24,522 bases of DNA from NCBI GenBank assembly GCA_018238625.1, contig JABCSY010000059.1:1-24522 (forward strand). Direction: 5' to 3'. Below, piece by piece: positions 9,169-22,859 of this stretch. Numbering within the stretch: the stretch's first letter is position 1; each line of letters opens with the position of its first letter. The DNA comes from Promethearchaeota archaeon (GTDB taxonomy: Archaea > Asgardarchaeota > Lokiarchaeia > Sigyniarchaeales > SOKP01). The notes below the pieces were generated by a model, which was not told the DNA's origin, ran no database searches, and was given only the letters and a program-made list of their open reading frames with translations. The position numbers and the translations under genes were made by a program.

Positions 9169-10302
9169 ATGAACGCGCGAGAAAGAATGTTAAGAGCGTT
9201 AAACCACGAAGAAGTCGATCGTATACCTCTTTTCTGTCAAGAAATAATGCCTGACTTTAGAAAAGAACTATTAAAATATTGGGGCGCTGAATTTAAAAGG
9301 GTTAGAAAATACTTTTATTATTACCTAGATTTCAATTTTCATAAAAAATTAGGGTTTGATTGTTCCTGGGGTTTTGAGGGTTTTCCAGTTCAGTTACCTC
9401 AGAGTTATTTGAACGAACATCCAGTTCCTAAGCCAGAAGACCCTAAAAAATACATTGATATCGATGGCAGACTTTTTCTAAAAAAGCCACCGACGGGCTC
9501 AGAGCTCTCTTGGTATTTGAAAAATTACATCACTACTGAAGAAATGGCAGACTTTTTTTACGATACTTACTACGATGTTGAATGGGAAGAAGCCCCCGAT
9601 TTTGCTTCTAAAATCAATAAAAGGCTTAAAAGATTCCCAATAGACGAAATTGTTCCTTGTGCTCAATTAAGCTACATATTAGAACCAATTTGGGAAGGAA
9701 TTGGCCTAGGATTGCTGATAAAATTAATTAGAAAAAACAAAAGTAAGATAAAAAGATATATTGAATTGAGAACGAAAAAAGCGGTGCAAGCAGCAAAAAT
9801 GTTGGCTGAAACAGATTTTGATATCTTCTTTCTATGTGATGACTCTGCCCTGAAGAATACTACTATGATAAATCCTAAATACCATCGAGAACTCATAATT
9901 CCCGCATATAAGAAAATCGTTCATGAGGTAAAAAAGGCAGGAAAATATGCGATCTTTCACTCGGATGGATTTACTGAACCGTATTTTGATGGGCTAATCG
10001 AAGCAGGTTTTGACGGCGTAGAGTCTCTGGAGCCGATGGCAGGTATGGATTTGAAGTATGTGAAGGAAAAATATGGTGATAAACTATGTTTGGTTGGAAA
10101 TATTGATGTTTCTCAACTTTTACCCTATGGCACGGAAGAAGACGTCGTAAACGCTGTGAAAAAGTGCATTCGGGACGCTGGCGAAGGTGGGGGTTATATT
10201 ATGAGCCCTTGTACAGACATAACGAATTCTTGTAAGTTGGAAAATGTTTTAACGATGATCTCTGCTACAAAGAAATACGGGGAATATCCTTTAAAGTTAT
10301 AG
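9169..10302 (+). CDS. URO-D/MtaA-CmuA superfamily protein (methylcobamide methyltransferase-like), HxD...C type
   Basis: MNARERMLRALNHEEVDRIP, CDDSA, FHSDG, LEPMAGMD, LVGNID and GGGYIMSPC. Confidence 0.85.
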   Translation: MNARERMLRALNHEEVDRIPLFCQEIMPDFRKELLKYWGAEFKRVRKYFYYYLDFNFHKKLGFDCSWGFEGFPVQLPQSYLNEHPVPKPEDPKKYIDIDGRLFLKKPPTGSELSWYLKNYITTEEMADFFYDTYYDVEWEEAPDFASKINKRLKRFPIDEIVPCAQLSYILEPIWEGIGLGLLIKLIRKNKSKIKRYIELRTKKAVQAAKMLAETDFDIFFLCDDSALKNTTMINPKYHRELIIPAYKKIVHEVKKAGKYAIFHSDGFTEPYFDGLIEAGFDGVESLEPMAGMDLKYVKEKYGDKLCLVGNIDVSQLLPYGTEEDVVNAVKKCIRDAGEGGGYIMSPCTDITNSCKLENVLTMISATKKYGEYPLKL

Positions 10303-10358
10303 AATGAGTTTTTAAAAAATAAAGTTTGATTAAAAATAAAAATAAAAAAAAGAATTTT
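10303..10358. terminator. A/T-run tract between convergent genes, probable bidirectional archaeal terminator
   Basis: T runs occur on both strands between the convergent stop codons at 10302 and 10359. Confidence 0.35.
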
Positions 10359-11804
10359 TTAAAAGCCAAGTTCAAGTAGCTTAGCTTTGTTTTCGAACAC
10401 TTTTTCTTGAGTGAGGGGATAGAATTTCCAAAAGATCAAAGTACCTACTAAAAGGACCAACATGGGGATAATCCCTAGAAGAATTCGAATTCCCAATAGA
10501 ATCATATCTACCTCAGCAAGTGTATGAGTTGCAACTAAAGTTGCATAATCCGGAATTCCTGCTTCAAATCCAGTAAGAGTGAATACCAAGGTTATTAACG
10601 CTTCGTCAATAAAAGCCGTTACGAGGCTTAATACTGCCCACGTACCAACAAGTATACCTTTCTGGTTCTTCCCAGTACGCACAACGAAATCATCTTGTGC
10701 GTTCGAAAACAATACTGGCATCCCAATAGTCCACACACATCCATTTCCGAACCCCACAAAAAACATGATAATCATCAAATCAATTTCTGTTTGGAAAAAA
10801 GCGAGTGGTACAATAAGGCCACATAATATAAAGCTTCCGATAACATATAATTTCTTATTGTTATTCATTTTTTTAAGAAGTTTGAGCCATACTGGAATAG
10901 AAATTAATGATCCCATGAGAAATAGTGCGAAATATATGATCATTACATCTGGATCATTAGATTGTAGAAGAAAGGTTGTTAAATATGCAACCATTCCTGT
11001 CATTATTGTTGTAGCCGAAAGCCAGAGAATGTACGAAGTATAGAGAGCCATAAAACTTTTCTGTTTGATAACTAACCATACACCTTTAAATACATGCAGT
11101 CGTTCATATTCTCTTGAGTAATATCGATCAATAATGATCTTATCCTCCCGAGCTCCAGGGATAAATAACACGCCAAAAATAATCGCTATTAAAGCTATAA
11201 TTGCTGCCATAACGGTGTATGATAATGTTGTGCTTCCAAAAAACAGAAGAAGTGGTGGAAGCATCATTCCAAGGACCTGTGCGATCATGTCAAAGAAACC
11301 CCACGATCCGGCATACTTCCTTCTTTCTGTTTCGGTGCGAAATTTATCAGCACGAAGTATAGCTACATGGATATCTACAAGCGTAATAAATAAATCAAAC
11401 ACGAACAGGGACATCAAAAGCCAAAGCATAACTGGCAAAGGATTTGCTGGATCGAGTTCTGGAGCAGAAAATATCATGATTAAAGATAGAGACTGTGGAA
11501 TAAATCCGATTACTATCCACGGAAAGCGCCTACCCCATTTTCTTGTCCACTTAAAATTTCGATCGGTTAGCCACCCAATTAAAGGGTCGTTAAGACCAGC
11601 CCACACTGTATTTATAGCAACAACAGTCAAGATCCACCCCGGCTCAAGACCAACTACTGTGTGATAATAAAAAAACATGAAGAGGCTCATTGTTGCCGTA
11701 GGAATCGTCCAGAGAATATTGTACATCCCAAAAGATAGATAAGTCATAAAAGAATGTCTTGAAGTTTCATTTCTAGTTTCAATTTGAGTTTCATTTTCAA
11801 CCAT
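10359..11804 (-). CDS. GPH-family (MFS_2) sugar:cation symporter, tandem copy 2
   Basis: LNDPLIGWLTDR, WGRRFPW, RTGKNQKG and FYPL...ENKAKLLELGF; the ATG at 11804 is preceded by GGTGA. Confidence 0.9.
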   Translation of the reverse strand: MVENETQIETRNETSRHSFMTYLSFGMYNILWTIPTATMSLFMFFYYHTVVGLEPGWILTVVAINTVWAGLNDPLIGWLTDRNFKWTRKWGRRFPWIVIGFIPQSLSLIMIFSAPELDPANPLPVMLWLLMSLFVFDLFITLVDIHVAILRADKFRTETERRKYAGSWGFFDMIAQVLGMMLPPLLLFFGSTTLSYTVMAAIIALIAIIFGVLFIPGAREDKIIIDRYYSREYERLHVFKGVWLVIKQKSFMALYTSYILWLSATTIMTGMVAYLTTFLLQSNDPDVMIIYFALFLMGSLISIPVWLKLLKKMNNNKKLYVIGSFILCGLIVPLAFFQTEIDLMIIMFFVGFGNGCVWTIGMPVLFSNAQDDFVVRTGKNQKGILVGTWAVLSLVTAFIDEALITLVFTLTGFEAGIPDYATLVATHTLAEVDMILLGIRILLGIIPMLVLLVGTLIFWKFYPLTQEKVFENKAKLLELGF

Positions 11805-12061
11805 AAAAATCACCAATTTTAGATTTTTAGATATTTTTAATATGTAAATTTTTTATATAAAATTTTAATTATTACTAATCAATTTTACTTATTTTAAAGA
11901 TTTCTAATTTTATATTGAATATTTATGCTAAAAATGACAATAAGAATAAATTTGACACATTAGATATAAAAAATTAGTTTAGACTATCCCTAAATAATCA
12001 TTTTCGTATAATTCTTACAAAAACAAATGATTCTTAGATTATAAAAAAAAAAGAGGATTAT

Positions 12062-13486
12062 TTAAAAGCCAAGTTCCTCGAGTTTTGCTTTATTTTCAGC
12101 TACTTTTTCTGGATCAAGGGGATAGAATTTCCAAAAAATTAATACGCCTAATAAAAGAACGCACATAGGTATAATTCCTATTAGAAATCGAAGTCCCCAT
12201 TGTATCAGCTCAACATTTGCTCCGCTGGCTATTAAATCTTCTAGAGTTGAAATTCCCGCTGGAAACATCGTTATTGCAAATACAATTGTAATAAATAATT
12301 CGTCAAAGAAAGCCATGAATCTGCTAATCAGTGCCCATGTCCCCAATATCATACCTTTCTGGTTCTTTCCTGTTCGTACAACGTAATCGTCTTGTACATC
12401 AGATAACACCACTGGTATACCTAATGTCCAAATGCATCCCATTGCTAAACCAGCAATGAAAAAGAAAAGCATAAAATCGACTAAAGTAACGAAGAAAGAC
12501 AAGGGAATTAAAGCTGCGCATAATAGAAAACCCCCAATTGTATATACCTTTTTAGTATTATTAACTTTCTTAAGGTATTTATGCCATATGAAAACAGAAA
12601 TCATAGCTCCTATTAGAAAAGATGCCATTAACATTATAAATATATCTTCTCCACCGTTGAAAATGAAAGTCACCAAATATAAACCCATTGCTGTCATTAG
12701 AGTTGTTGCTATGCCAAAGGTAGTGTATGAAGCGTAAAATACCATAAAGCTTTTCTGTTTAACTACTTCTTTCATTCCTTTAAAAAATCCCATCCTTTCG
12801 TATTCTTTTGAATAATAGCGATCAATAATGGTTTTATCCTCTCGGACACCTGGTAAGAATAAAATGGCACAAATTATTGCGATAACAACAATAAATGCCG
12901 CCATAAGGGCATATGAGGCTCGATCGTTACCAAAGAGAAAAAGCGGAGGGATCATCGTACCAATAGCTACAGCAATCATATCTATAGGTCCAAAGAATTT
13001 AGAATATCTTTTACGTTGAGCATCAGAGCGAAATTTATCCGCGCGAAGAGTTCCAACATTTACATCCAGTATAGTAACAAAAGTGTCAAATATGAAAAAG
13101 GACATTATTAGCCAACCAAAAACGGGCCAAGGATTTATCGCAGGATCAACATTAGGTGGAGTGTAAATAAGGTAAAAAGAAAGGCACCATGGAATAATAC
13201 TAACTACCACCCATGGAAAACGTCTACCCCACTTTCGGGTCCACTTGAAGTTCCTGTCGACTAAAAAACCGATTAAAGGTTCGTTGATTGAATCCCATAC
13301 CATAAAAATAGCCATAGCAAGAAATATTAGAACGGGCTCGAGCCCGACCACTGTATGATAGAAGAAAAAGTAGGTCATATTTAAAGCAGAAACAATAATT
13401 GTCCACACGATTTGGTACATACTAAATGATAGTATATTTAAACCGGAGTATCTCGTTTCTTTTAATTCTACATCTGTTTGATTCAT
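12062..13486 (-). CDS. GPH-family (MFS_2) sugar:cation symporter, tandem copy 1
   Basis: WDSINEPLIGFLVDR, WGRRFPW, RTGKNQKG and FYPL...ENKAKLEELGF; a clear paralogue of 10359-11804. Confidence 0.9.
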   Translation of the reverse strand: MNQTDVELKETRYSGLNILSFSMYQIVWTIIVSALNMTYFFFYHTVVGLEPVLIFLAMAIFMVWDSINEPLIGFLVDRNFKWTRKWGRRFPWVVVSIIPWCLSFYLIYTPPNVDPAINPWPVFGWLIMSFFIFDTFVTILDVNVGTLRADKFRSDAQRKRYSKFFGPIDMIAVAIGTMIPPLFLFGNDRASYALMAAFIVVIAIICAILFLPGVREDKTIIDRYYSKEYERMGFFKGMKEVVKQKSFMVFYASYTTFGIATTLMTAMGLYLVTFIFNGGEDIFIMLMASFLIGAMISVFIWHKYLKKVNNTKKVYTIGGFLLCAALIPLSFFVTLVDFMLFFFIAGLAMGCIWTLGIPVVLSDVQDDYVVRTGKNQKGMILGTWALISRFMAFFDELFITIVFAITMFPAGISTLEDLIASGANVELIQWGLRFLIGIIPMCVLLLGVLIFWKFYPLDPEKVAENKAKLEELGF

Positions 13487-15810: not shown

Positions 15811-16986
15811 TTAATTTAGATTTAACGGATATTTTCGATATTTTTCAATTGCATTTCTTAATACCACAATATTTTCCCAAGGAGCATTCAATATATTATG
15901 GGAGGGACCAACAAAATAACCACCATTATACCCCGCTGATTTCACGCAGCGTTTTACCTCCTGTACAATGTCGTCAGGTGTTCCAAAATTAAGAATTCGA
16001 CTTGAATCTATTCCTCCCATAAAACTTAATTTATCACCAAGATTTTGCTTTAGAGAAGCCAAATCGACACCTGCAGCAGGTTCAAGTGCTTGAATACAAT
16101 TAAGTCCCGCTTCTGCCATATAGGGTAAATTTTCATCAATATATCCACAAGAGTGCTGAACGATAAACATTCCTCTTTGCTCACAAGCTTTATACAGTTT
16201 TTTATAATAAGGAAGAATGAACTTTTTAAACTGTTCAATTGATAAAATTGAGCGCCCTTTATACCCTAAATCGTCTGAGTAGAAAATTATATCTACACCA
16301 GCTTCATGAACGCGCTTAATAACTTCTATGTTTAATTTAGTATACTCGTTGAGAACCTCGTGAATAAATGAGGGGTTTTTTCGCATATAATAGGCTACAC
16401 GGCTCATTGTCATCCCTTCAAATAAAGATTCATGAATAGCTACCGGTACGAACGCCATCGGATATAAATACTTTTTTAGAGAATCTACATACCCATCCCA
16501 AATTTGAGGTGTATAATTAAGCTTATCATTAACCTGCTCTGAAGGTTTTCCATATTTATCCCAATAATAGTGAACTATTTCCGGAGTTCGAAAATGTCCA
16601 TCTACATACCATAGATAAGCTAGACCCGTATCAACTTGTTTAACCAGTTTCCACACACATCCGTTAAGCGCACTGATCATGCAATCTGGATATTCTGGAG
16701 GAGCACGCTTTACAGGTTCTTTGTATTTTTTGGGACCCCATGGATCCATGGAATGGCAATCAACATTCCAGAATCGTAATTCAGTAATATCGCCTGCCCA
16801 ACAATATTTTGCCCTAGAGAAATCGTTTTCTATGATTGTCTTATACTTGTTATATTCATCAGTTTTCAGAAATCTTTGATAAGAACTAGTAGTAAATTCA
16901 AAACCCAGATAATGAACGGGTAGCATGTCAATATTATCATCGAGTTCTAAGGTCCTGATAACTCGTTCTCTTTTTGATAATGTCAT
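15811..16986 (-). CDS. URO-D/MtaA-CmuA superfamily protein, HxC...H type
   Basis: SKRERV, SDDLG, QHSCG, LEPAAGVD, FMGGID and GGYFVGPSHN. Confidence 0.85.
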   Translation of the reverse strand: MTLSKRERVIRTLELDDNIDMLPVHYLGFEFTTSSYQRFLKTDEYNKYKTIIENDFSRAKYCWAGDITELRFWNVDCHSMDPWGPKKYKEPVKRAPPEYPDCMISALNGCVWKLVKQVDTGLAYLWYVDGHFRTPEIVHYYWDKYGKPSEQVNDKLNYTPQIWDGYVDSLKKYLYPMAFVPVAIHESLFEGMTMSRVAYYMRKNPSFIHEVLNEYTKLNIEVIKRVHEAGVDIIFYSDDLGYKGRSILSIEQFKKFILPYYKKLYKACEQRGMFIVQHSCGYIDENLPYMAEAGLNCIQALEPAAGVDLASLKQNLGDKLSFMGGIDSSRILNFGTPDDIVQEVKRCVKSAGYNGGYFVGPSHNILNAPWENIVVLRNAIEKYRKYPLNLN

Positions 16987-17025: not shown

Positions 17026-18333
17026 TTAATCGTTTTCCCGTAATTTATTTTTTTCAGACTCATTTTCTATATCGTTTAGTTCCTCTTTTAATTCATTATA
17101 TAACGAGATAAAACTTGCTGCGGTACTTTCTGGAGTGCGAAATATTTCAGATTTGATGAAATCAAACTCTTCTTCGTCTTTGATAATTGTTTTAAGGTCC
17201 GTATCTAACGTTAAAGGGAGTTTTAATAATCTTTCAGTCAAAAGCAAAGGTTTTCTCTTGTGAGAAATTATTCTGGAAGGGAAATTGGAAAAGTACTTCT
17301 CAACTAATTCGTCAGCGCTTTCATACGCTCTCATATCTTTATTTCCTTCCTTCAGCATTTTTTCAAATTTATTTTCAAAATCACATGTAAAATTGGTTAC
17401 AGAATACCTGAGTAGCTTTGATGATTTTGATGTTATTAATCCAACGGTTATATTATCAGATTCGTGAAGAATTAGAATCCCATCTTTTAATTGGATGTCG
17501 AGTAAGCCTCCTATATTCATAATTTCTTCACTCATAAGTTGGATGGCATTAATAAATCCAGTGAAGATATTTTCACTTATTTCCGATTTAGACCAATCGT
17601 GATCAAATAACGGATATCCCTCGCGATCTTTCACCACAATCCTATAAACCGTAAAGGGTAAAATATAAAGCAATTTGGGTTCAATTATTACAGATAAAGC
17701 TGTTATTAGAAAACCAATCAATAAAGTAAAATCAGCTATTAGAATATAAAAAGTGTCAATTAAATTTAATAAGTAAAAAAACATTGTTACAACCGAGGCT
17801 AAGAATATTCCAATGAAGAATACACGAGCTTCTTTTTTAATCAAAAATGGAGCATTCTTAAGAGTTTTTATACCCCAATAAAACAAATAAATTTCACTTA
17901 TAATTGTAAGTATCATTCCAATATTGCCAAATAGACCCATCCAAGGTAGGCGTATATATCCTCCTTGCATCTGGATATCAACGGCATTTGGCTGAAAACC
18001 AAGATATATTAATAAAACGCTCAATCCTATTACTACTACAAATCCAAGTGAGTAAAAATCTTCTTTTATAATGTATGTTATCCCGATTACTAATGATAAG
18101 GTTAAAGGTATAAGGGTAAAACCAGTAATTATACTCAGAAACTTACTTATATAGAGGATAGCTAATCCATCTAGTAAAATGAAGATACTAGAACTAAAGA
18201 TTGCTAACCTAATGTAATTTAATGATGTAATCCTTTTAGTTTTTGGTTTAATGTAAGTTGTTATAGTTAAAATAAATCCACAAACAGCTACGATAAAATC
18301 TACAATAACTTCAGGTGTCAGATTCAATGTCAT
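17026..18333 (-). CDS. Seven-TM membrane protein with a C-terminal longin/roadblock-like cytoplasmic domain
   Basis: Seven hydrophobic segments in the first ~218 aa, followed by RIVVKDREGYPLFDHDW...IFTGFINAIQLMSEEI...IQLKDGILIL...VGLITSKSSKLLRYSVTNFTCDFENKF (beta-beta-alpha-beta-beta-beta-alpha-alpha pattern). AGGAGGT RBS in the 3' end of the upstream gene. Confidence 0.6.
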   Translation of the reverse strand: MTLNLTPEVIVDFIVAVCGFILTITTYIKPKTKRITSLNYIRLAIFSSSIFILLDGLAILYISKFLSIITGFTLIPLTLSLVIGITYIIKEDFYSLGFVVVIGLSVLLIYLGFQPNAVDIQMQGGYIRLPWMGLFGNIGMILTIISEIYLFYWGIKTLKNAPFLIKKEARVFFIGIFLASVVTMFFYLLNLIDTFYILIADFTLLIGFLITALSVIIEPKLLYILPFTVYRIVVKDREGYPLFDHDWSKSEISENIFTGFINAIQLMSEEIMNIGGLLDIQLKDGILILHESDNITVGLITSKSSKLLRYSVTNFTCDFENKFEKMLKEGNKDMRAYESADELVEKYFSNFPSRIISHKRKPLLLTERLLKLPLTLDTDLKTIIKDEEEFDFIKSEIFRTPESTAASFISLYNELKEELNDIENESEKNKLREND

Positions 18334-18340
18334 TTAATTT

Positions 18341-19096
18341 TTAACCTCCTTTCTCGTTATTGAAATTTAATTTTTTAATTTGGGGTTTATTTTGCGAAAG
18401 CGTCTTTATTATTGAGATTAGATCGTCTTTCTTTCTTGAATTAAGAACGAGAGAATTATTATCTCCATTTAATTTAATAATATTAAATTCGATAAGGTTA
18501 TTAATTCGATAGTAAATTGTCTCTCTTTTTTCGTTTACCAATTTATGGACTTCACTCCTTTTGAGTTTTTCATTGCTTATCAGTAAAGAGATAATTTTAA
18601 GGTATATCTCATCGCGTAAAATAAAATAAATCAAACCGATTTCGTCATCAATCTCATACGGAAGAAAGACAGTGTAATTTTTAATTTTAATCTTTTTAAT
18701 ATAATTAAATTTGATAAGCATTTCCAAATGCCATATTAACTGGCCAGAACTTCCCATGTTACCACTACTATCTGTTATGATTTGTTTTCTTATTGTTGAG
18801 AAATGGACTCCTAAATTGGAGGTCAAAAAACTATAAAGTTTAAACCTATACCTATTATTAAGAACATCATCTCTGGTGTATTTTGAGCCCTCAACTAACA
18901 CTTTTTTATTAATAAGTAATTGTATGATGTTTAGGAGCCCTTTTCGGGGAAGTTTTAACTGTCTTTTAGCAAGAGTATAAAGTAATTCTGTATCTAACAC
19001 TTTTTTATTATTTATTACCTCTTTTGCGATCTCTATAACTCTTTGTACGCTTGGATGATTCAGCGTTAGTGAAAGTGTTAGGTTTAAATTAGACAT
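18341..19096 (-). CDS. Multi-winged-helix transcriptional regulator
   Basis: Repeated wHTH-like units: RFKLYSFLTSNLGVHFSTIRK...GQLIWHLEMLIKFNYI and RSEVHKLVNEKRETIYYRINNLIEFNII. It ends 7 nt before the 7TM gene. Confidence 0.75.
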   Translation of the reverse strand: MSNLNLTLSLTLNHPSVQRVIEIAKEVINNKKVLDTELLYTLAKRQLKLPRKGLLNIIQLLINKKVLVEGSKYTRDDVLNNRYRFKLYSFLTSNLGVHFSTIRKQIITDSSGNMGSSGQLIWHLEMLIKFNYIKKIKIKNYTVFLPYEIDDEIGLIYFILRDEIYLKIISLLISNEKLKRSEVHKLVNEKRETIYYRINNLIEFNIIKLNGDNNSLVLNSRKKDDLISIIKTLSQNKPQIKKLNFNNEKGG

Positions 19097-19374
19097 TTTT
19101 GGGTAATTTTTATCCGATTGAAGATAGATCGTTAGTAAATATTTGTTATATTCAAATTTAATAATATAGTTTTTTGTAAAAATTCAATCCTAATACTTTT
19201 AAATACTCTGGATAAATAATCTTTCATGTCAAGTTTATTTTATTACACTTGACGCTATTGATGGAGATAATTAGAAATAGAGGGCTATTTTTAATAAAAA
19301 TTTTAACCAATTCCATCAGTTTATCGTGTTTTAAACTCAATTAAACTTATTATAAAAATTTCATAATAATTCAT

Positions 19375-20274: not shown

Positions 20275-20423
20275 AAGAAAAATAAACTATTCCAAAATCT
20301 TCAGGTTTCTGTCTTTCTCTCTCAACCAACTCTTTTTAATTTTTTAAACTCTCATTCCAGTTTGAATGTACTACATTATTGTAAAATGAAAAGATTAATT
20401 TGTTTTGTTTTAATATTTTTTTT

Positions 20424-21680
20424 ATGGAATATAAAGAGGATATTGGTGAAGCGAAAGAACGCATGGATGCATGGTGGAACCACGAAATAATTGATCGTCC
20501 GGTTTTTAGTTATTATTTTCCTAAAAAAAGGGGAAAACTTGGTGCGTATTTAGATATCGTCGGTGAAAATTGGGATTTAGCACAAGACCATGAAGGAATT
20601 GAAAATACTCTTGATGGGATTGAAAAACGAGCCGAAATTACGTACCATGGAGGTGAATCTATTCCTACATATTTCCCGAATTATGGTCCTGGAATTGTGG
20701 CAGCGGTTTTTGGAGTTAAACCAAAATTCCAATCAAACACAGTTTGGTTTAGTCGTCCAACAAAAATAGAGGATATCACAGAATACCTTGAAAGCGTTAT
20801 ATTGAATCAAAACAATGAATGGTATTCACGACTATTAAAAATCACTGAATATGCGGCAAAACGAGCCGGTAGAAACTATACAATAGCACAAACTGATTTA
20901 GGAGGTGTTTTAGATACGCTTTCAGCATTTTTAGGACCGACTAATATAATTTTAACTATGAAGAGAAAGCCTGAAATTATTGACACATGTCGTTCAATCA
21001 TACTTGAAAAACTATTACACATTTATGATAAATTACAAGATATTATTGATAAATATGGAGATGGATGTAGTAGTTGGCTCAATGTATGGTGTGGAAAAAG
21101 GAGTTATCCCATGCAATGTGATTTTAGCGCGATGTTAAACCCAAAATGGTTTAAAAGGTTTGCCTTACCGGATCTTGTAGCTCAAGCAGAACATCTAGAT
21201 TACGCAATTTACCATCTAGACGGTCCCAACGCACTCCATCACTTAGATCCCTTATTGGCCGAACCGTCTATAACGGGGATTCAATGGGTTCCAGGTGCAG
21301 GAAGTGCACCAATGGGTTCAGAAGTATGGATATCGCTTTATAAGAAAATTCAAAAAGCAGGTAAGAATTTGGTAATAGACGCCTCGCCAGAGCAAGTTTC
21401 TAATTTATATAAAAATCTTGACTATAAAGGGTTATTTGTAAGAACCTTCTACCGAACAGAATTTATTACAAATCTCTACTTACCGAAATTTATGGGCGGT
21501 AATGATGGCAAATTAATATTTAAAGCAAGAAATTGGATAGAAAAACAAGGGAAAAAGAAAATAACGAAAGAAGAATTAGAGGAGTTCTTAATAATAGATG
21601 GAATTGAATTAAATAACAAGCTTAAAAAAGATTTGCTTAAGGAGATTAATAGTTCTATGACGGAAAAAAACCTTGTATAG
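20424..21680 (+). CDS. URO-D-like protein of the YHLDG/IQWVPGAG subtype, with a C-terminal helical extension
   Basis: AWWNHEIIDRP, NYGPG, TDLGG, QCDFSAM, YHLDGP and IQWVPGAG. The ATG at 20424 is preferred over the TTG at 20400. Confidence 0.75.
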   Translation: MEYKEDIGEAKERMDAWWNHEIIDRPVFSYYFPKKRGKLGAYLDIVGENWDLAQDHEGIENTLDGIEKRAEITYHGGESIPTYFPNYGPGIVAAVFGVKPKFQSNTVWFSRPTKIEDITEYLESVILNQNNEWYSRLLKITEYAAKRAGRNYTIAQTDLGGVLDTLSAFLGPTNIILTMKRKPEIIDTCRSIILEKLLHIYDKLQDIIDKYGDGCSSWLNVWCGKRSYPMQCDFSAMLNPKWFKRFALPDLVAQAEHLDYAIYHLDGPNALHHLDPLLAEPSITGIQWVPGAGSAPMGSEVWISLYKKIQKAGKNLVIDASPEQVSNLYKNLDYKGLFVRTFYRTEFITNLYLPKFMGGNDGKLIFKARNWIEKQGKKKITKEELEEFLIIDGIELNNKLKKDLLKEINSSMTEKNLV

Positions 21681-21698
21681 TATTTCACTAATATTTTC

Positions 21699-22859
21699 TC
21701 AAAGTTTTAATGGATATTTTCGATATTTCTCTATAGCGGCTCTCATTGCTAAAACATTCTCCCACGGCATGTTTAAGATGTCGTGACTAGGTCCTACGAA
21801 GAATCCACCACCTTTACCAGCTTTCATTATTGTGCTCCTTACATTTTCGTACACATCTTCGGGAGTTCCATGAGTTAAAACCCCTGAGGAGTCCAATCCA
21901 CCCATAAAGCACAAACGATCTCCTAGCGATTCTTTTAACCCAGCTAAGTCAACTCCTGCTGTTGCTTCTAAAGATTGAATGCAGTTAAGACCAATATCAA
22001 CTAAATCAGGTAAATATTGATCAACTTTCCCACAAGAATGGAGTACAACGATCACACCCCTTTTTTTGCAAGCTTGGTAAATTCTTTTGTGATATGGAAG
22101 GATAAATTCTCGAAAGACTTTTAAAGAAAAAAATCCATTGTCCTTATAACCCAAATCATCGCCAAACATTACTATATCAACGCCTACTTCAGCTAAACGC
22201 TTAATTATTTCAATATTAACCTTCGTGTACTCGTCCATAATTTCGTGAATAAATTTTGGGTTTTTACGTATATAATAAGCAAAACGAGTAAAAGAAAGCC
22301 CTCCAATCAAGACTTCGGAGGGATTCAAGGGTAAATTTGCCATTGGATAGAAATAAGGTGCAAGGGCTTCAACAAATCCTTCCCACTTTTGAGTCGAGTA
22401 TTTAACTCTATCGTTAATCAATTCAGTTGGTTTTCCATACTGGTCCCAATAAGAGTGCAAGATCTCCGGACTTGTAAAATAACCACCGACATACCAAGCA
22501 TATTCTAAACCCGTATTAACTTGTTTCACAGTTCTATATAACCTGCCGTCCATCCTATTAAGACGACAGCCAGCGTACTCAGGAGGGGCGTTTTCGTACC
22601 TCACTTTTATTTTATTTTCCCCAAAGGGGTCCATTCCATAAAGATCGGCGTTCCAAAAGCGTTGTTCTGTAATATAGTATTTAACGTTAGATTTCGTATT
22701 TTTTACGGAACTATGATATCTTTTCCTTTCTTCTGATTCTTTAAAAGCCTGGAAAGAAAGACCTGTTTGCTCAAAGCCAAATAAATGTATAGGAACCATA
22801 TCGGGTTCACCATCAAGCTCGAGAGCTTTGAATACCCGTTCACGTTTTGATAATACCAT
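21699..22859 (-). CDS. URO-D/MtaA-CmuA superfamily protein, HxC...H type (paralogue of 15811-16986)
   Basis: SKRERV, GDDLG, LHSCG, FMGGLD, GGFFVGPSHD and AIEKYRKYPL; collinear with the 15811-16986 protein. Confidence 0.85.
   Translation of the reverse strand: MVLSKRERVFKALELDGEPDMVPIHLFGFEQTGLSFQAFKESEERKRYHSSVKNTKSNVKYYITEQRFWNADLYGMDPFGENKIKVRYENAPPEYAGCRLNRMDGRLYRTVKQVNTGLEYAWYVGGYFTSPEILHSYWDQYGKPTELINDRVKYSTQKWEGFVEALAPYFYPMANLPLNPSEVLIGGLSFTRFAYYIRKNPKFIHEIMDEYTKVNIEIIKRLAEVGVDIVMFGDDLGYKDNGFFSLKVFREFILPYHKRIYQACKKRGVIVVLHSCGKVDQYLPDLVDIGLNCIQSLEATAGVDLAGLKESLGDRLCFMGGLDSSGVLTHGTPEDVYENVRSTIMKAGKGGGFFVGPSHDILNMPWENVLAMRAAIEKYRKYPLKL

Follow-up and report, generated by a model that had tools for sequence, protein, structure and literature searches.

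A stretch of 24,522 nucleotides from a Promethearchaeota archaeon (contig JABCSY010000059.1, positions 1 to 24,522; hereafter the window, meaning the whole stretch that was analysed) carries two adjacent genes on the minus strand, one for a protein with three winged-helix domains (the partner) and one for a protein in which seven membrane helices are followed by a longin domain on the cytoplasmic side and by a helical tail (the receptor; Table 1). The best explanation of the data as a whole, to which we give about an even chance, is that the two form a transmembrane signalling pair without a kinase, which was seen in this analysis almost exclusively in Asgard archaea. According to this model the 435-amino acid (aa) protein would be a receptor whose sequence-variable seven-helix bundle senses a small or membrane-borne signal. 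The resulting conformational change would pass through a conserved cytoplasmic loop and the junction at helix 7 to the longin domain, which would act as transmitter. The longin domain, together with the three-helix tail, would bind the co-expressed winged-helix protein and hold it at the membrane or release it, and this retention or release would control DNA binding of the partner at a TATA-proximal site in the promoter of the pair itself. Binding between receptor and partner, the direction of control, the nature of the ligand and the DNA target are elements that we infer from the observations described below.

The genes are arranged with the regulator first, the TAA stop codon of the partner being separated from the ATG of the receptor by 7 nt. 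An earlier note, made from the sequence of the window, had described a two-gene unit with this gap and with an AGGAGGT ribosome binding site in the last codons of the regulator, and direct reading of the sequence agreed with the description. What the note had observed, architecture and gene unit, was confirmed in every part; its interpretation is partly supported, being right on the architecture and on the likely role. Since hundreds of database sequences match the receptor at E ≤ 0.001 (402 proteins among 7998 scored candidates, and 612 cluster representatives, of which 408 at 1e-10 or better), sequence comparison indicates that it is not a chance open reading frame (ORF).

Hydropathy analysis of the receptor (Kyte-Doolittle windows, threshold 1.6) gave six clear hydrophobic stretches. 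In the AlphaFold2 model, built on an alignment of 63 sequences (pLDDT 89.3, pTM 0.79), there are seven membrane helices, comprising residues 7-33, 36-61, 64-90, 96-112, 133-160, 163-189 and 195-217, as the earlier note had claimed; the fifth stays under the hydropathy threshold, yet it is helical in the model. The claimed loop between the fourth and fifth helices was also found (residues 113-132) and holds a beta hairpin with strands at 121-123 and 126-128. Because clusters of Lys and Arg occur in the loops at 29-34 and 156-170, our own reading is that the N-terminus and the helix 4-5 hairpin are outside and the C-terminus is inside. In alignments of the family and of close homologs conservation was low in the membrane helices and highest on the cytoplasmic face, where the loop at about 153-170 (YWGIKT..NAPFLIKKEA) is conserved. 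Among 13 close homologs only W153 and K166 are invariant in the membrane part, and there is no invariant set of His, Asp or Cys residues. Variation of the helices relative to the cytoplasmic face, together with up to nine family matches in some genomes, fits a family of receptors with varied ligands.

When the model was compared with about 48,000 solved chains, approximately 200 residues of the segment 1-220 superposed on seven-transmembrane (7TM) bundles. The top matches were ACER3 (Z 14.6), the 7TM domain of a class C GPCR (Z 14.4) and Ste2 (Z 14.3), with 194-205 residues aligned at an rmsd of 3.5-3.6, followed by adhesion GPCRs at Z about 12; the GPCR matches overall had an rmsd of 3.5-4.5 and 5-11% identity. 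With the tool used, helical models attain Z near 14 without relatedness, and unrelated helical bundles score equally; we therefore describe the membrane part of the model as a 7TM bundle and claim homology neither to ACER3 nor to GPCRs. Pfam and NCBIfam scans assigned no family to the 435-aa protein. The Pfam scan detected neither HisKA nor HATPase_c nor any other kinase or cyclase family at E ≤ 0.1, in agreement with the lack of such a domain asserted by the earlier note. The 7TMR-DISM_7TM model (PF07695) did not match the receptor, and its scan over the genome at E ≤ 1 missed the gene; it touched four of the 63 family members, the best E value (0.0026) being below the cut-off.

The identity of the cytoplasmic domain is indicated by both structure and profile comparison. 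Its elements follow the order beta-beta-alpha-beta-beta-beta-alpha-alpha without an N-terminal helix, with strands at residues 229-236, 241-246, 277-282, 285-291 and 295-301 and helices at 254-274, 306-329 and 334-348, which is the order of longin and not of roadblock domains. All matches to residues 228-353 among the solved chains were longin domains: VAMP7 (4afi_B; Z 13.0, rmsd 2.5, 120 residues aligned), Sec22 (Z 12.6, rmsd 3.1, 121 residues), AP-3 sigma (Z 11.9, rmsd 2.5, 121 residues), synbindin (Z 11.7, rmsd 3.5, 123 residues) and SRX (Z 11.1, rmsd 3.2, 120 residues). Re-scoring of Foldseek candidates added Sec22b (1ifq_A; Z 14.0, rmsd 2.6, 122 of 127 residues). The structure search that the earlier note had proposed for residues ~220-350 is therefore positive for longin folds. 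Of the two folds named in that note (longin or roadblock) the former stands, and the latter has the wrong helix order: Roadblock/LC7 (PF03259) was rejected, since the short helix at 219-223 leads straight into strand 1 and two helices stand at the C-terminal end, and in Foldseek Roadblock chains aligned over just 79-99 columns. A profile of Asgard longins was compiled from 20 segments of small and larger Asgard proteins, 11 of which are matched by Fuz_longin_1, three by Clat_adaptor_s and two by Longin. In hhalign the profile of the receptor family matched it with a probability of 97.5% and an E value of 6.6e-12 over residues 234-348 (113 columns). By predicted fold and by profile the domain is longin-like.

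Other searches gave little. Direct Pfam scans failed to detect a longin domain in the receptor, and Fuz_longin_1 matched one of the 63 family members (E 0.0014). Genome scans with the Pfam models PF06218 and PF19036 did not touch the receptor gene, and the former (NPR2) had no match genome-wide at E ≤ 1, although with a model of this length (440 positions) weak matches can be missed. The longin domain by itself, used as query against PDB sequences, had no match at E ≤ 10, plain Foldseek gave only matches above E 1e-3 (CopZ1 at E 3.6e-3, TM 0.51), and the sole, sub-threshold lead in the protein atlas was a cluster named Roadblock/LAMTOR2 at 0.82. With the eukaryotic longins Sec22b, VAMP7, AP sigma, synbindin/TRAPPC4 and SRX the receptor domain shares the fold and the order of strands and helices (Z 11-14), as well as a profile-level link through the Asgard proteins that match Fuz_longin_1, Clat_adaptor_s and Longin. 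It differs from them in its low identity (8-12%) and in following seven membrane helices, without a SNARE motif or a coat context.

The helical tail that the earlier note had placed after this domain consists in the model of three helices (374-383, 387-399 and 402-434), in which P401, F408 and Y412 are invariant among the 13 close homologs. Only the subfamily paired with a winged-helix gene has this tail. Three forms of the receptor can be distinguished: tail-less proteins of ~355-385 aa, proteins of ~430 aa with the tail, and proteins of 525-650 aa with extra C-terminal domains. To the last form belongs a 628-aa paralog on contig C192 of the same genome, in which the same 7TM and longin core is followed by HisKA (E 4e-19) and HATPase_c (E 4e-29), and downstream of which lies an ORF judged by eye to be receiver-like. 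P0200 (629 aa) has the same layout as read by eye, the kinase domains having been verified with Pfam in the C192 copy only, and at least six long open frames of this type are among the matches listed. Because the same core is fused to a histidine kinase in the C192 paralog, it plausibly behaves as a sensor input. Thus, of the kinase-free membrane sensor postulated in the earlier note, the absence of a kinase holds and the sensor role is plausible. The label 'output domain' given there to the longin domain is too strong, since in the kinase-fused paralog the domain is located in mid-chain, between membrane part and kinase, like a PAS or GAF transmitter.

Longin domains of the same type are also found just inside the membrane in two single-pass surface proteins of this genome, one of 686 aa on contig C142 (L006:1303-3363, minus strand) and one of at least 887 aa on C63 (L007:670-3333, minus strand), whose cytoplasmic domains match receptor residues 227-359. 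They differ from the receptor in crossing the membrane with a single helix, not with seven, in carrying a large ectodomain, and in that a winged-helix-like part, recognized by eye after the longin-type domain, forms the end of the same chain and is not encoded by a separate gene. Homology of this end to the first winged helix (WH1) of the partner was considered and rejected (3.3 bits, not significant).

The receptor family is widespread in the phylum. Of 201 sampled genomes, 161 contained a match to its profile at E ≤ 1e-10, as did 80 of the 85 high-quality ones, and some of these matches span the longin part only. The named records are Asgard with one exception, a contig labelled Thermoplasmatota. 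This contig (L082, JAIWHQ010000057.1) is 8 kb long, has very low coverage and contains a partial receptor gene (53% identity) together with the 16-mer motif described below; the label is probably a binning error and not a non-Asgard occurrence.

The partner (AlphaFold2 model: pLDDT 86.6, pTM 0.79) is predicted to consist of three winged helices, WH1 to WH3, the last having a core at residues 163-218 and a helix at 220-235. Superposition of WH3 (residues 157-241) on DNA-binding domains of ArsR, MarR and PadR type gave Z values of 11-12.4, DNA-bound structures included; the top structures were AspA (Z 12.4), CzrA (Z 11.9), DNA-bound Rv2887 (Z 11.9) and MarR-family chains (Z 11-11.7). The modelled WH3 has the winged helix-turn-helix (HTH) fold of this type, and DNA binding is predicted. 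Pfam matches of the partner itself were weak and below the cut-offs (HTH_34, E 2e-4; HTH_HVO_0163_N, PF24266, E 0.003, 18.1 vs 31 bits). Its paralog on contig C125 passes the PF24266 cut-off (32.0 bits), more distant paralogs in the same genome pass those of HTH_HVO_0163_N and HTH_24, and many homologs carry precomputed PF24266 annotations. The partner, like the receptor, has more than 300 known homologs. WH2 and WH3 correspond to the architecture of the archaeal HVO_0163-type regulators (PF24266 + HTH_24), from which the partner differs by an extra N-terminal winged helix, by its sub-cut-off score and by its fixed operon with the receptor.

Conservation of the pairing, which the earlier note had put forward as a check, was determined in 75 loci from a species-representative genome collection. 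These contained 80 receptor genes with intact N-terminus, 78 of them with at least 800 nt of upstream sequence. A winged-helix gene was located directly upstream and on the same strand in 70 of the 78 tail-bearing cases. Of the eight exceptions, four are receptor genes in second position within HTH-receptor-receptor arrays; the rest are L062, L075 and L087, and also L064, whose partner gene lies downstream. In 21 tail-less receptor genes, chosen by length from 20 other genomes, there was no adjacent winged-helix gene, the sole trace being found in L107, where a weak match (E 3e-4) lies at a distance of about 2.6 kb. The genome analysed here has a second full pair on C125 (50% and 49% identity). 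A third pair, at C102:2620-3012 (L004/L015), is truncated at the edge of the contig; in its partner gene one open frame covers no more than the last ~60 codons, and this copy may be degraded or frameshifted.

In one locus (L111:2440-4485, contig C223 of genome G019) a single frame of 682 codons joins receptor, tail and three-winged-helix protein, in an order opposite to that of the operon. The frame is identical at 675 of 676 residues to the database protein P0122. When proteins of 371-1183 aa were searched, at limited sensitivity, with the winged-helix part of this fusion, no second fused protein turned up. In a midpoint-rooted FastTree tree of 83 sequences (shared first 370 residues, supports not inspected) all of the 30 tail-bearing forms group with the fusion in one clade nested among tail-less forms, and the two kinase forms are placed elsewhere, outside this clade.

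A candidate promoter was recognized upstream of the pair. It is composed of a TATA-like box directly followed by a 16-mer (TATTAGGAYTGAATTT, read on the minus strand), whose end lies 83 nt upstream of the partner ATG, and the block made of the two was kept in five ortholog loci. In the 4.29-Mb genome the exact 16-mer has four copies: the one described here, one beside the C125 pair, one in an intergenic spacer of C74 and one inside a gene of C97. Only the two pair-linked copies are accompanied by a TATA box. When up to two mismatches were allowed, the 75 related loci contained 23 matches vs 7 for the reversed control, clustered beside the pairs; six matches were upstream of the partner gene in the five ortholog loci. 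The element may serve the pair as promoter and operator. A loose 14-mer form of the motif was not enriched genome-wide (7 matches vs 6 for the control), and a window-wide repeat search revealed no promoter motif common with the neighbouring genes. A second conserved upstream block, at 19263-19284, is unique in the genome. Two other readings of the upstream region were tried: a small ORF in the conserved block was rejected, as its ATG is not kept and indels of 1 nt disrupt the reading frame, and the block had no Rfam match better than E 0.14, which gives no indication of a known RNA.

Several observations weigh against the signalling model. In 11 loci of the paralog group the motif is found 60-360 nt downstream of the receptor gene and inverted; the C125 copy (C125:8907-8922), where TATA box and 16-mer lie inverted just downstream of the paralogous pair, is also placed in this way. 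A simple operator model does not explain the inverted downstream motif, for which an antisense promoter or a shared operator would be guesses. DNA identity upstream of the orthologs (0.73-0.91) is not above that of third codon positions (0.76-0.87), and unusual conservation of the upstream region as a whole was rejected on this ground. No ligand site is evident in the receptor. Since the tail-bearing, partnered forms make up a single clade, tail and partner may have been gained once, so that their co-occurrence would represent one ancestral event and not repeated association. The fusion is a single case and may result from loss of a stop codon or from an error of assembly. Finally, a regulator-first operon is also typical of plain autoregulation, with no contact between the two proteins.

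This last arrangement defines the alternative that survives best, although we consider it rather unlikely: the winged-helix protein would be a local autoregulator that represses or activates its own operon without ever touching the receptor, and the receptor would have another, unlinked partner. The operon layout with the conserved TATA-proximal motif, the classical ArsR/MarR type of WH3 and the existence of tail-less relatives that work without a winged-helix partner are all consistent with it. It accounts poorly for the restriction of the tail to the partnered clade, for the natural fusion that unites both proteins in a single chain and for the HTH-receptor-receptor arrays, which keep one regulator for two receptors. 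Direct signalling from the receptor to the transcription factor, one of the routes named in the earlier note, is an inference.

The earlier note had also considered signalling to a GTPase. In a reading of this kind, which appears quite unlikely, the membrane-anchored longin domain would dock or regulate one of the many small GTPases of the genome, and the winged-helix protein would be secondary. The fold is closest to longins that bind GTPases or coats (SRX, synbindin/TRAPP, AP sigma), and Asgard genomes are reported, in the part of the source consulted, to fuse longin domains to GTPases (PMC10933270). Among the 37 genes flanking the tail-less relatives, which are heterogeneous and include one MarR regulator, there is one Ras-family GTPase, convergent with its receptor gene, and, at another relative, one Roadblock protein. 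However, one GTPase in 37 flanking genes is little, Pfam detected no GTPase gene in the window, the conserved neighbour is the winged-helix gene, and the longin domain of the kinase-fused paralog feeds a kinase and not a GTPase. The claim of signalling to a GTPase thus found no support.

It is very unlikely that the three-winged-helix protein is a scaffold that does not bind DNA, an adaptor similar to ESCRT-II assembling on the longin receptor at the membrane. Such a role would be in line with the best whole-chain Foldseek matches of the partner, which are multi-winged-helix proteins (ESCRT-II 2zme_B, E 1e-3; SelB WH2-4; RPC34/62 of Pol III; Roco COR), and with the natural fusion, which would tether the winged-helix protein permanently to the membrane; but these matches are weak (TM 0.2-0.38, rmsd > 10), WH3 fits DNA-bound repressors much better, and relatives of the partner carry HTH_24 and MarR signatures. 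That the seven-helix part is no sensor but a membrane enzyme of ceramidase/PAQR type or a transporter, which the longin domain only regulates or localises, is hardly credible in spite of the top rank of ACER3, as similar Z values are reached by unrelated bundles, the same core serves as kinase input, and the active site of ACER and PAQR proteins is a His-rich zinc site, of which the few invariant residues of the close homologs show no trace.

The signalling pair can be related to several known systems. Liu et al. (bioRxiv 10.1101/2020.10.19.343400) noted that NPRL2-like longin domains of Asgard archaea are in many cases fused to two-component domains; these fusions likewise place longin inside prokaryote-style signalling proteins, and the C192 paralog (7TM-longin-HisKA-HATPase_c) fits this description precisely. 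In the part of that report consulted there is no mention of a seven-helix input, of a kinase-free form with a tail or of an operon with a three-winged-helix protein. For Lokiarchaeum, 41 longin domains were counted and GTPase fusions mentioned, with no membrane form in the consulted parts of the two papers (Tran et al. PMC10933270; Dey et al. PMC4917890). The sensor domains of archaeal kinases listed in the portion consulted of Galperin et al. (PMC5847659) do not include 7TM-longin. A 2026 preprint (10.64898/2026.10.28.762692) mentions, in the part available, 7TM and class C GPCR-like clusters of Asgard archaea and gives no details of them, and no link to the receptor family was established. 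A description of a 7TM-longin protein or of a receptor/winged-helix gene pair was not found in the text of the literature searched; related architectures may be depicted in Fig. 5c of Liu et al.

Similar in design are the bacterial 7TMR-DISM proteins (PF07695) and, as far as the consulted part of the source describes them, the archaeal HisKA_7TM kinases (PMC5847659), which also combine a seven-helix input with interchangeable cytoplasmic modules. In the receptor family the place of such a module is empty or is taken by a kinase or by a tail with its partner, and the receptor differs in having no significant Pfam match. To our knowledge, a longin transmitter is not among the modules listed for the other two families.

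Asgard genomes hold dozens of longin domains, and arguments for eukaryote-like trafficking rest on them. The receptor family provides the longin domain with a defined context: a seven-helix input, an exchangeable kinase output and, in one large clade, a genetic tie to a DNA-binding protein. The question of what an Asgard longin binds becomes testable with two small soluble pieces, receptor residues 218-435 and the 251-aa partner. If they do bind, this would support the view that many Asgard longins are signalling modules comparable to PAS and GAF and not trafficking parts, and it would define a kinase-free pathway from membrane to gene in archaea. A more far-reaching idea, which we regard as improbable, is that the 7TM and longin core was an ancestral Asgard unit linking receptor to transducer, which stands alone in most lineages, feeds a kinase in some and has captured a transcription factor through the tail in the Loki-type ones. 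Such a unit would prefigure the eukaryotic coupling of membrane sensors to longin-domain regulators, and would supply the functional link that is missing between one- and two-component signalling in prokaryotes and the longin/GTPase platforms of eukaryotes. In eukaryotes, couplings of this kind are known from the SRX domain of SR-alpha on SR-beta and from the GPCR-like lysosomal LYCHOS on the longin-containing GATOR1.

Table 1. Features of the receptor/winged-helix pair and related paralogous genes in the window (positions in nt from the first letter of the window)
Feature	Position	Strand	Basis and remarks
Candidate promoter of the pair	19180..19205	-	TATA-like box 19197-19205, then 16-mer TATTAGGATTGAATTT 19180-19195
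Winged-helix partner gene	18341..19096	-	ORF, 251 aa; three winged-helix domains
WH1, residues 15-74	18875-19054	-	AlphaFold2 model
WH2, residues 82-146	18659-18853	-	AlphaFold2 model
WH3 and C-terminal helix, residues 157-235	18392-18628	-	AlphaFold2 model
AGGAGGT Shine-Dalgarno-like site	18344..18350	-	Inside the last codons of the partner, 10 nt before the receptor ATG; sequence read directly
Receptor gene	17026..18333	-	ORF, 435 aa; seven-helix membrane protein with longin domain
Seven-helix membrane domain, residues 1-223	17665..18333	-	Hydropathy and AlphaFold2 model; superposition on 7TM bundles
Cytoplasmic longin domain, residues 228-349	17287..17652	-	AlphaFold2 model, superposition on solved longins, profile-profile match
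Linker and three-helix C-terminal tail	17029..17268	-	Linker ~356-373 of low confidence, tail 374-434; AlphaFold2 model
URO-D/MtaA-CmuA-like paralog	9169-10302	+	The three paralogs lie in one 13-kb stretch
URO-D/MtaA-CmuA-like paralog	15811-16986	-	
URO-D/MtaA-CmuA-like paralog	21699-22859	-	

The window as a whole has the appearance of a sugar-use-type cluster, with a sulfatase, four MFS_2 transporters and one MFS_1 transporter, a DUF2961 protein, three URO-D/MtaA-like paralogs, a weak GH31-like protein, a xylose-isomerase-like TIM barrel and an enoyl-CoA hydratase. One of the URO-D/MtaA-like genes lies 39 nt downstream of the receptor gene on the same strand. Control of the surrounding catabolic genes by the pair, as envisaged in the earlier note, received no support: these neighbours recur in one of the 75 related loci (L016, the closest relative), and within this genome the TATA box with 16-mer is present only at the two full pairs. 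Two of the URO-D/MtaA-CmuA-like paralogs contain a direct repeat (16454-16644 and 22339-22529, 71% identity). The MFS_2 genes at 10359-11816 and 12062-13486, both on the minus strand, form a tandem duplicate, reflected in repeats at 10309-11222 and 12012-12916 (families D1, D3 and D6, 72-75% identity). Two ORFs on the plus strand matched no Pfam family, one of 504 aa (1463-2977) and one of 426 aa (20400-21680); the latter, also without an NCBIfam match, is 93% identical in the L016 locus.

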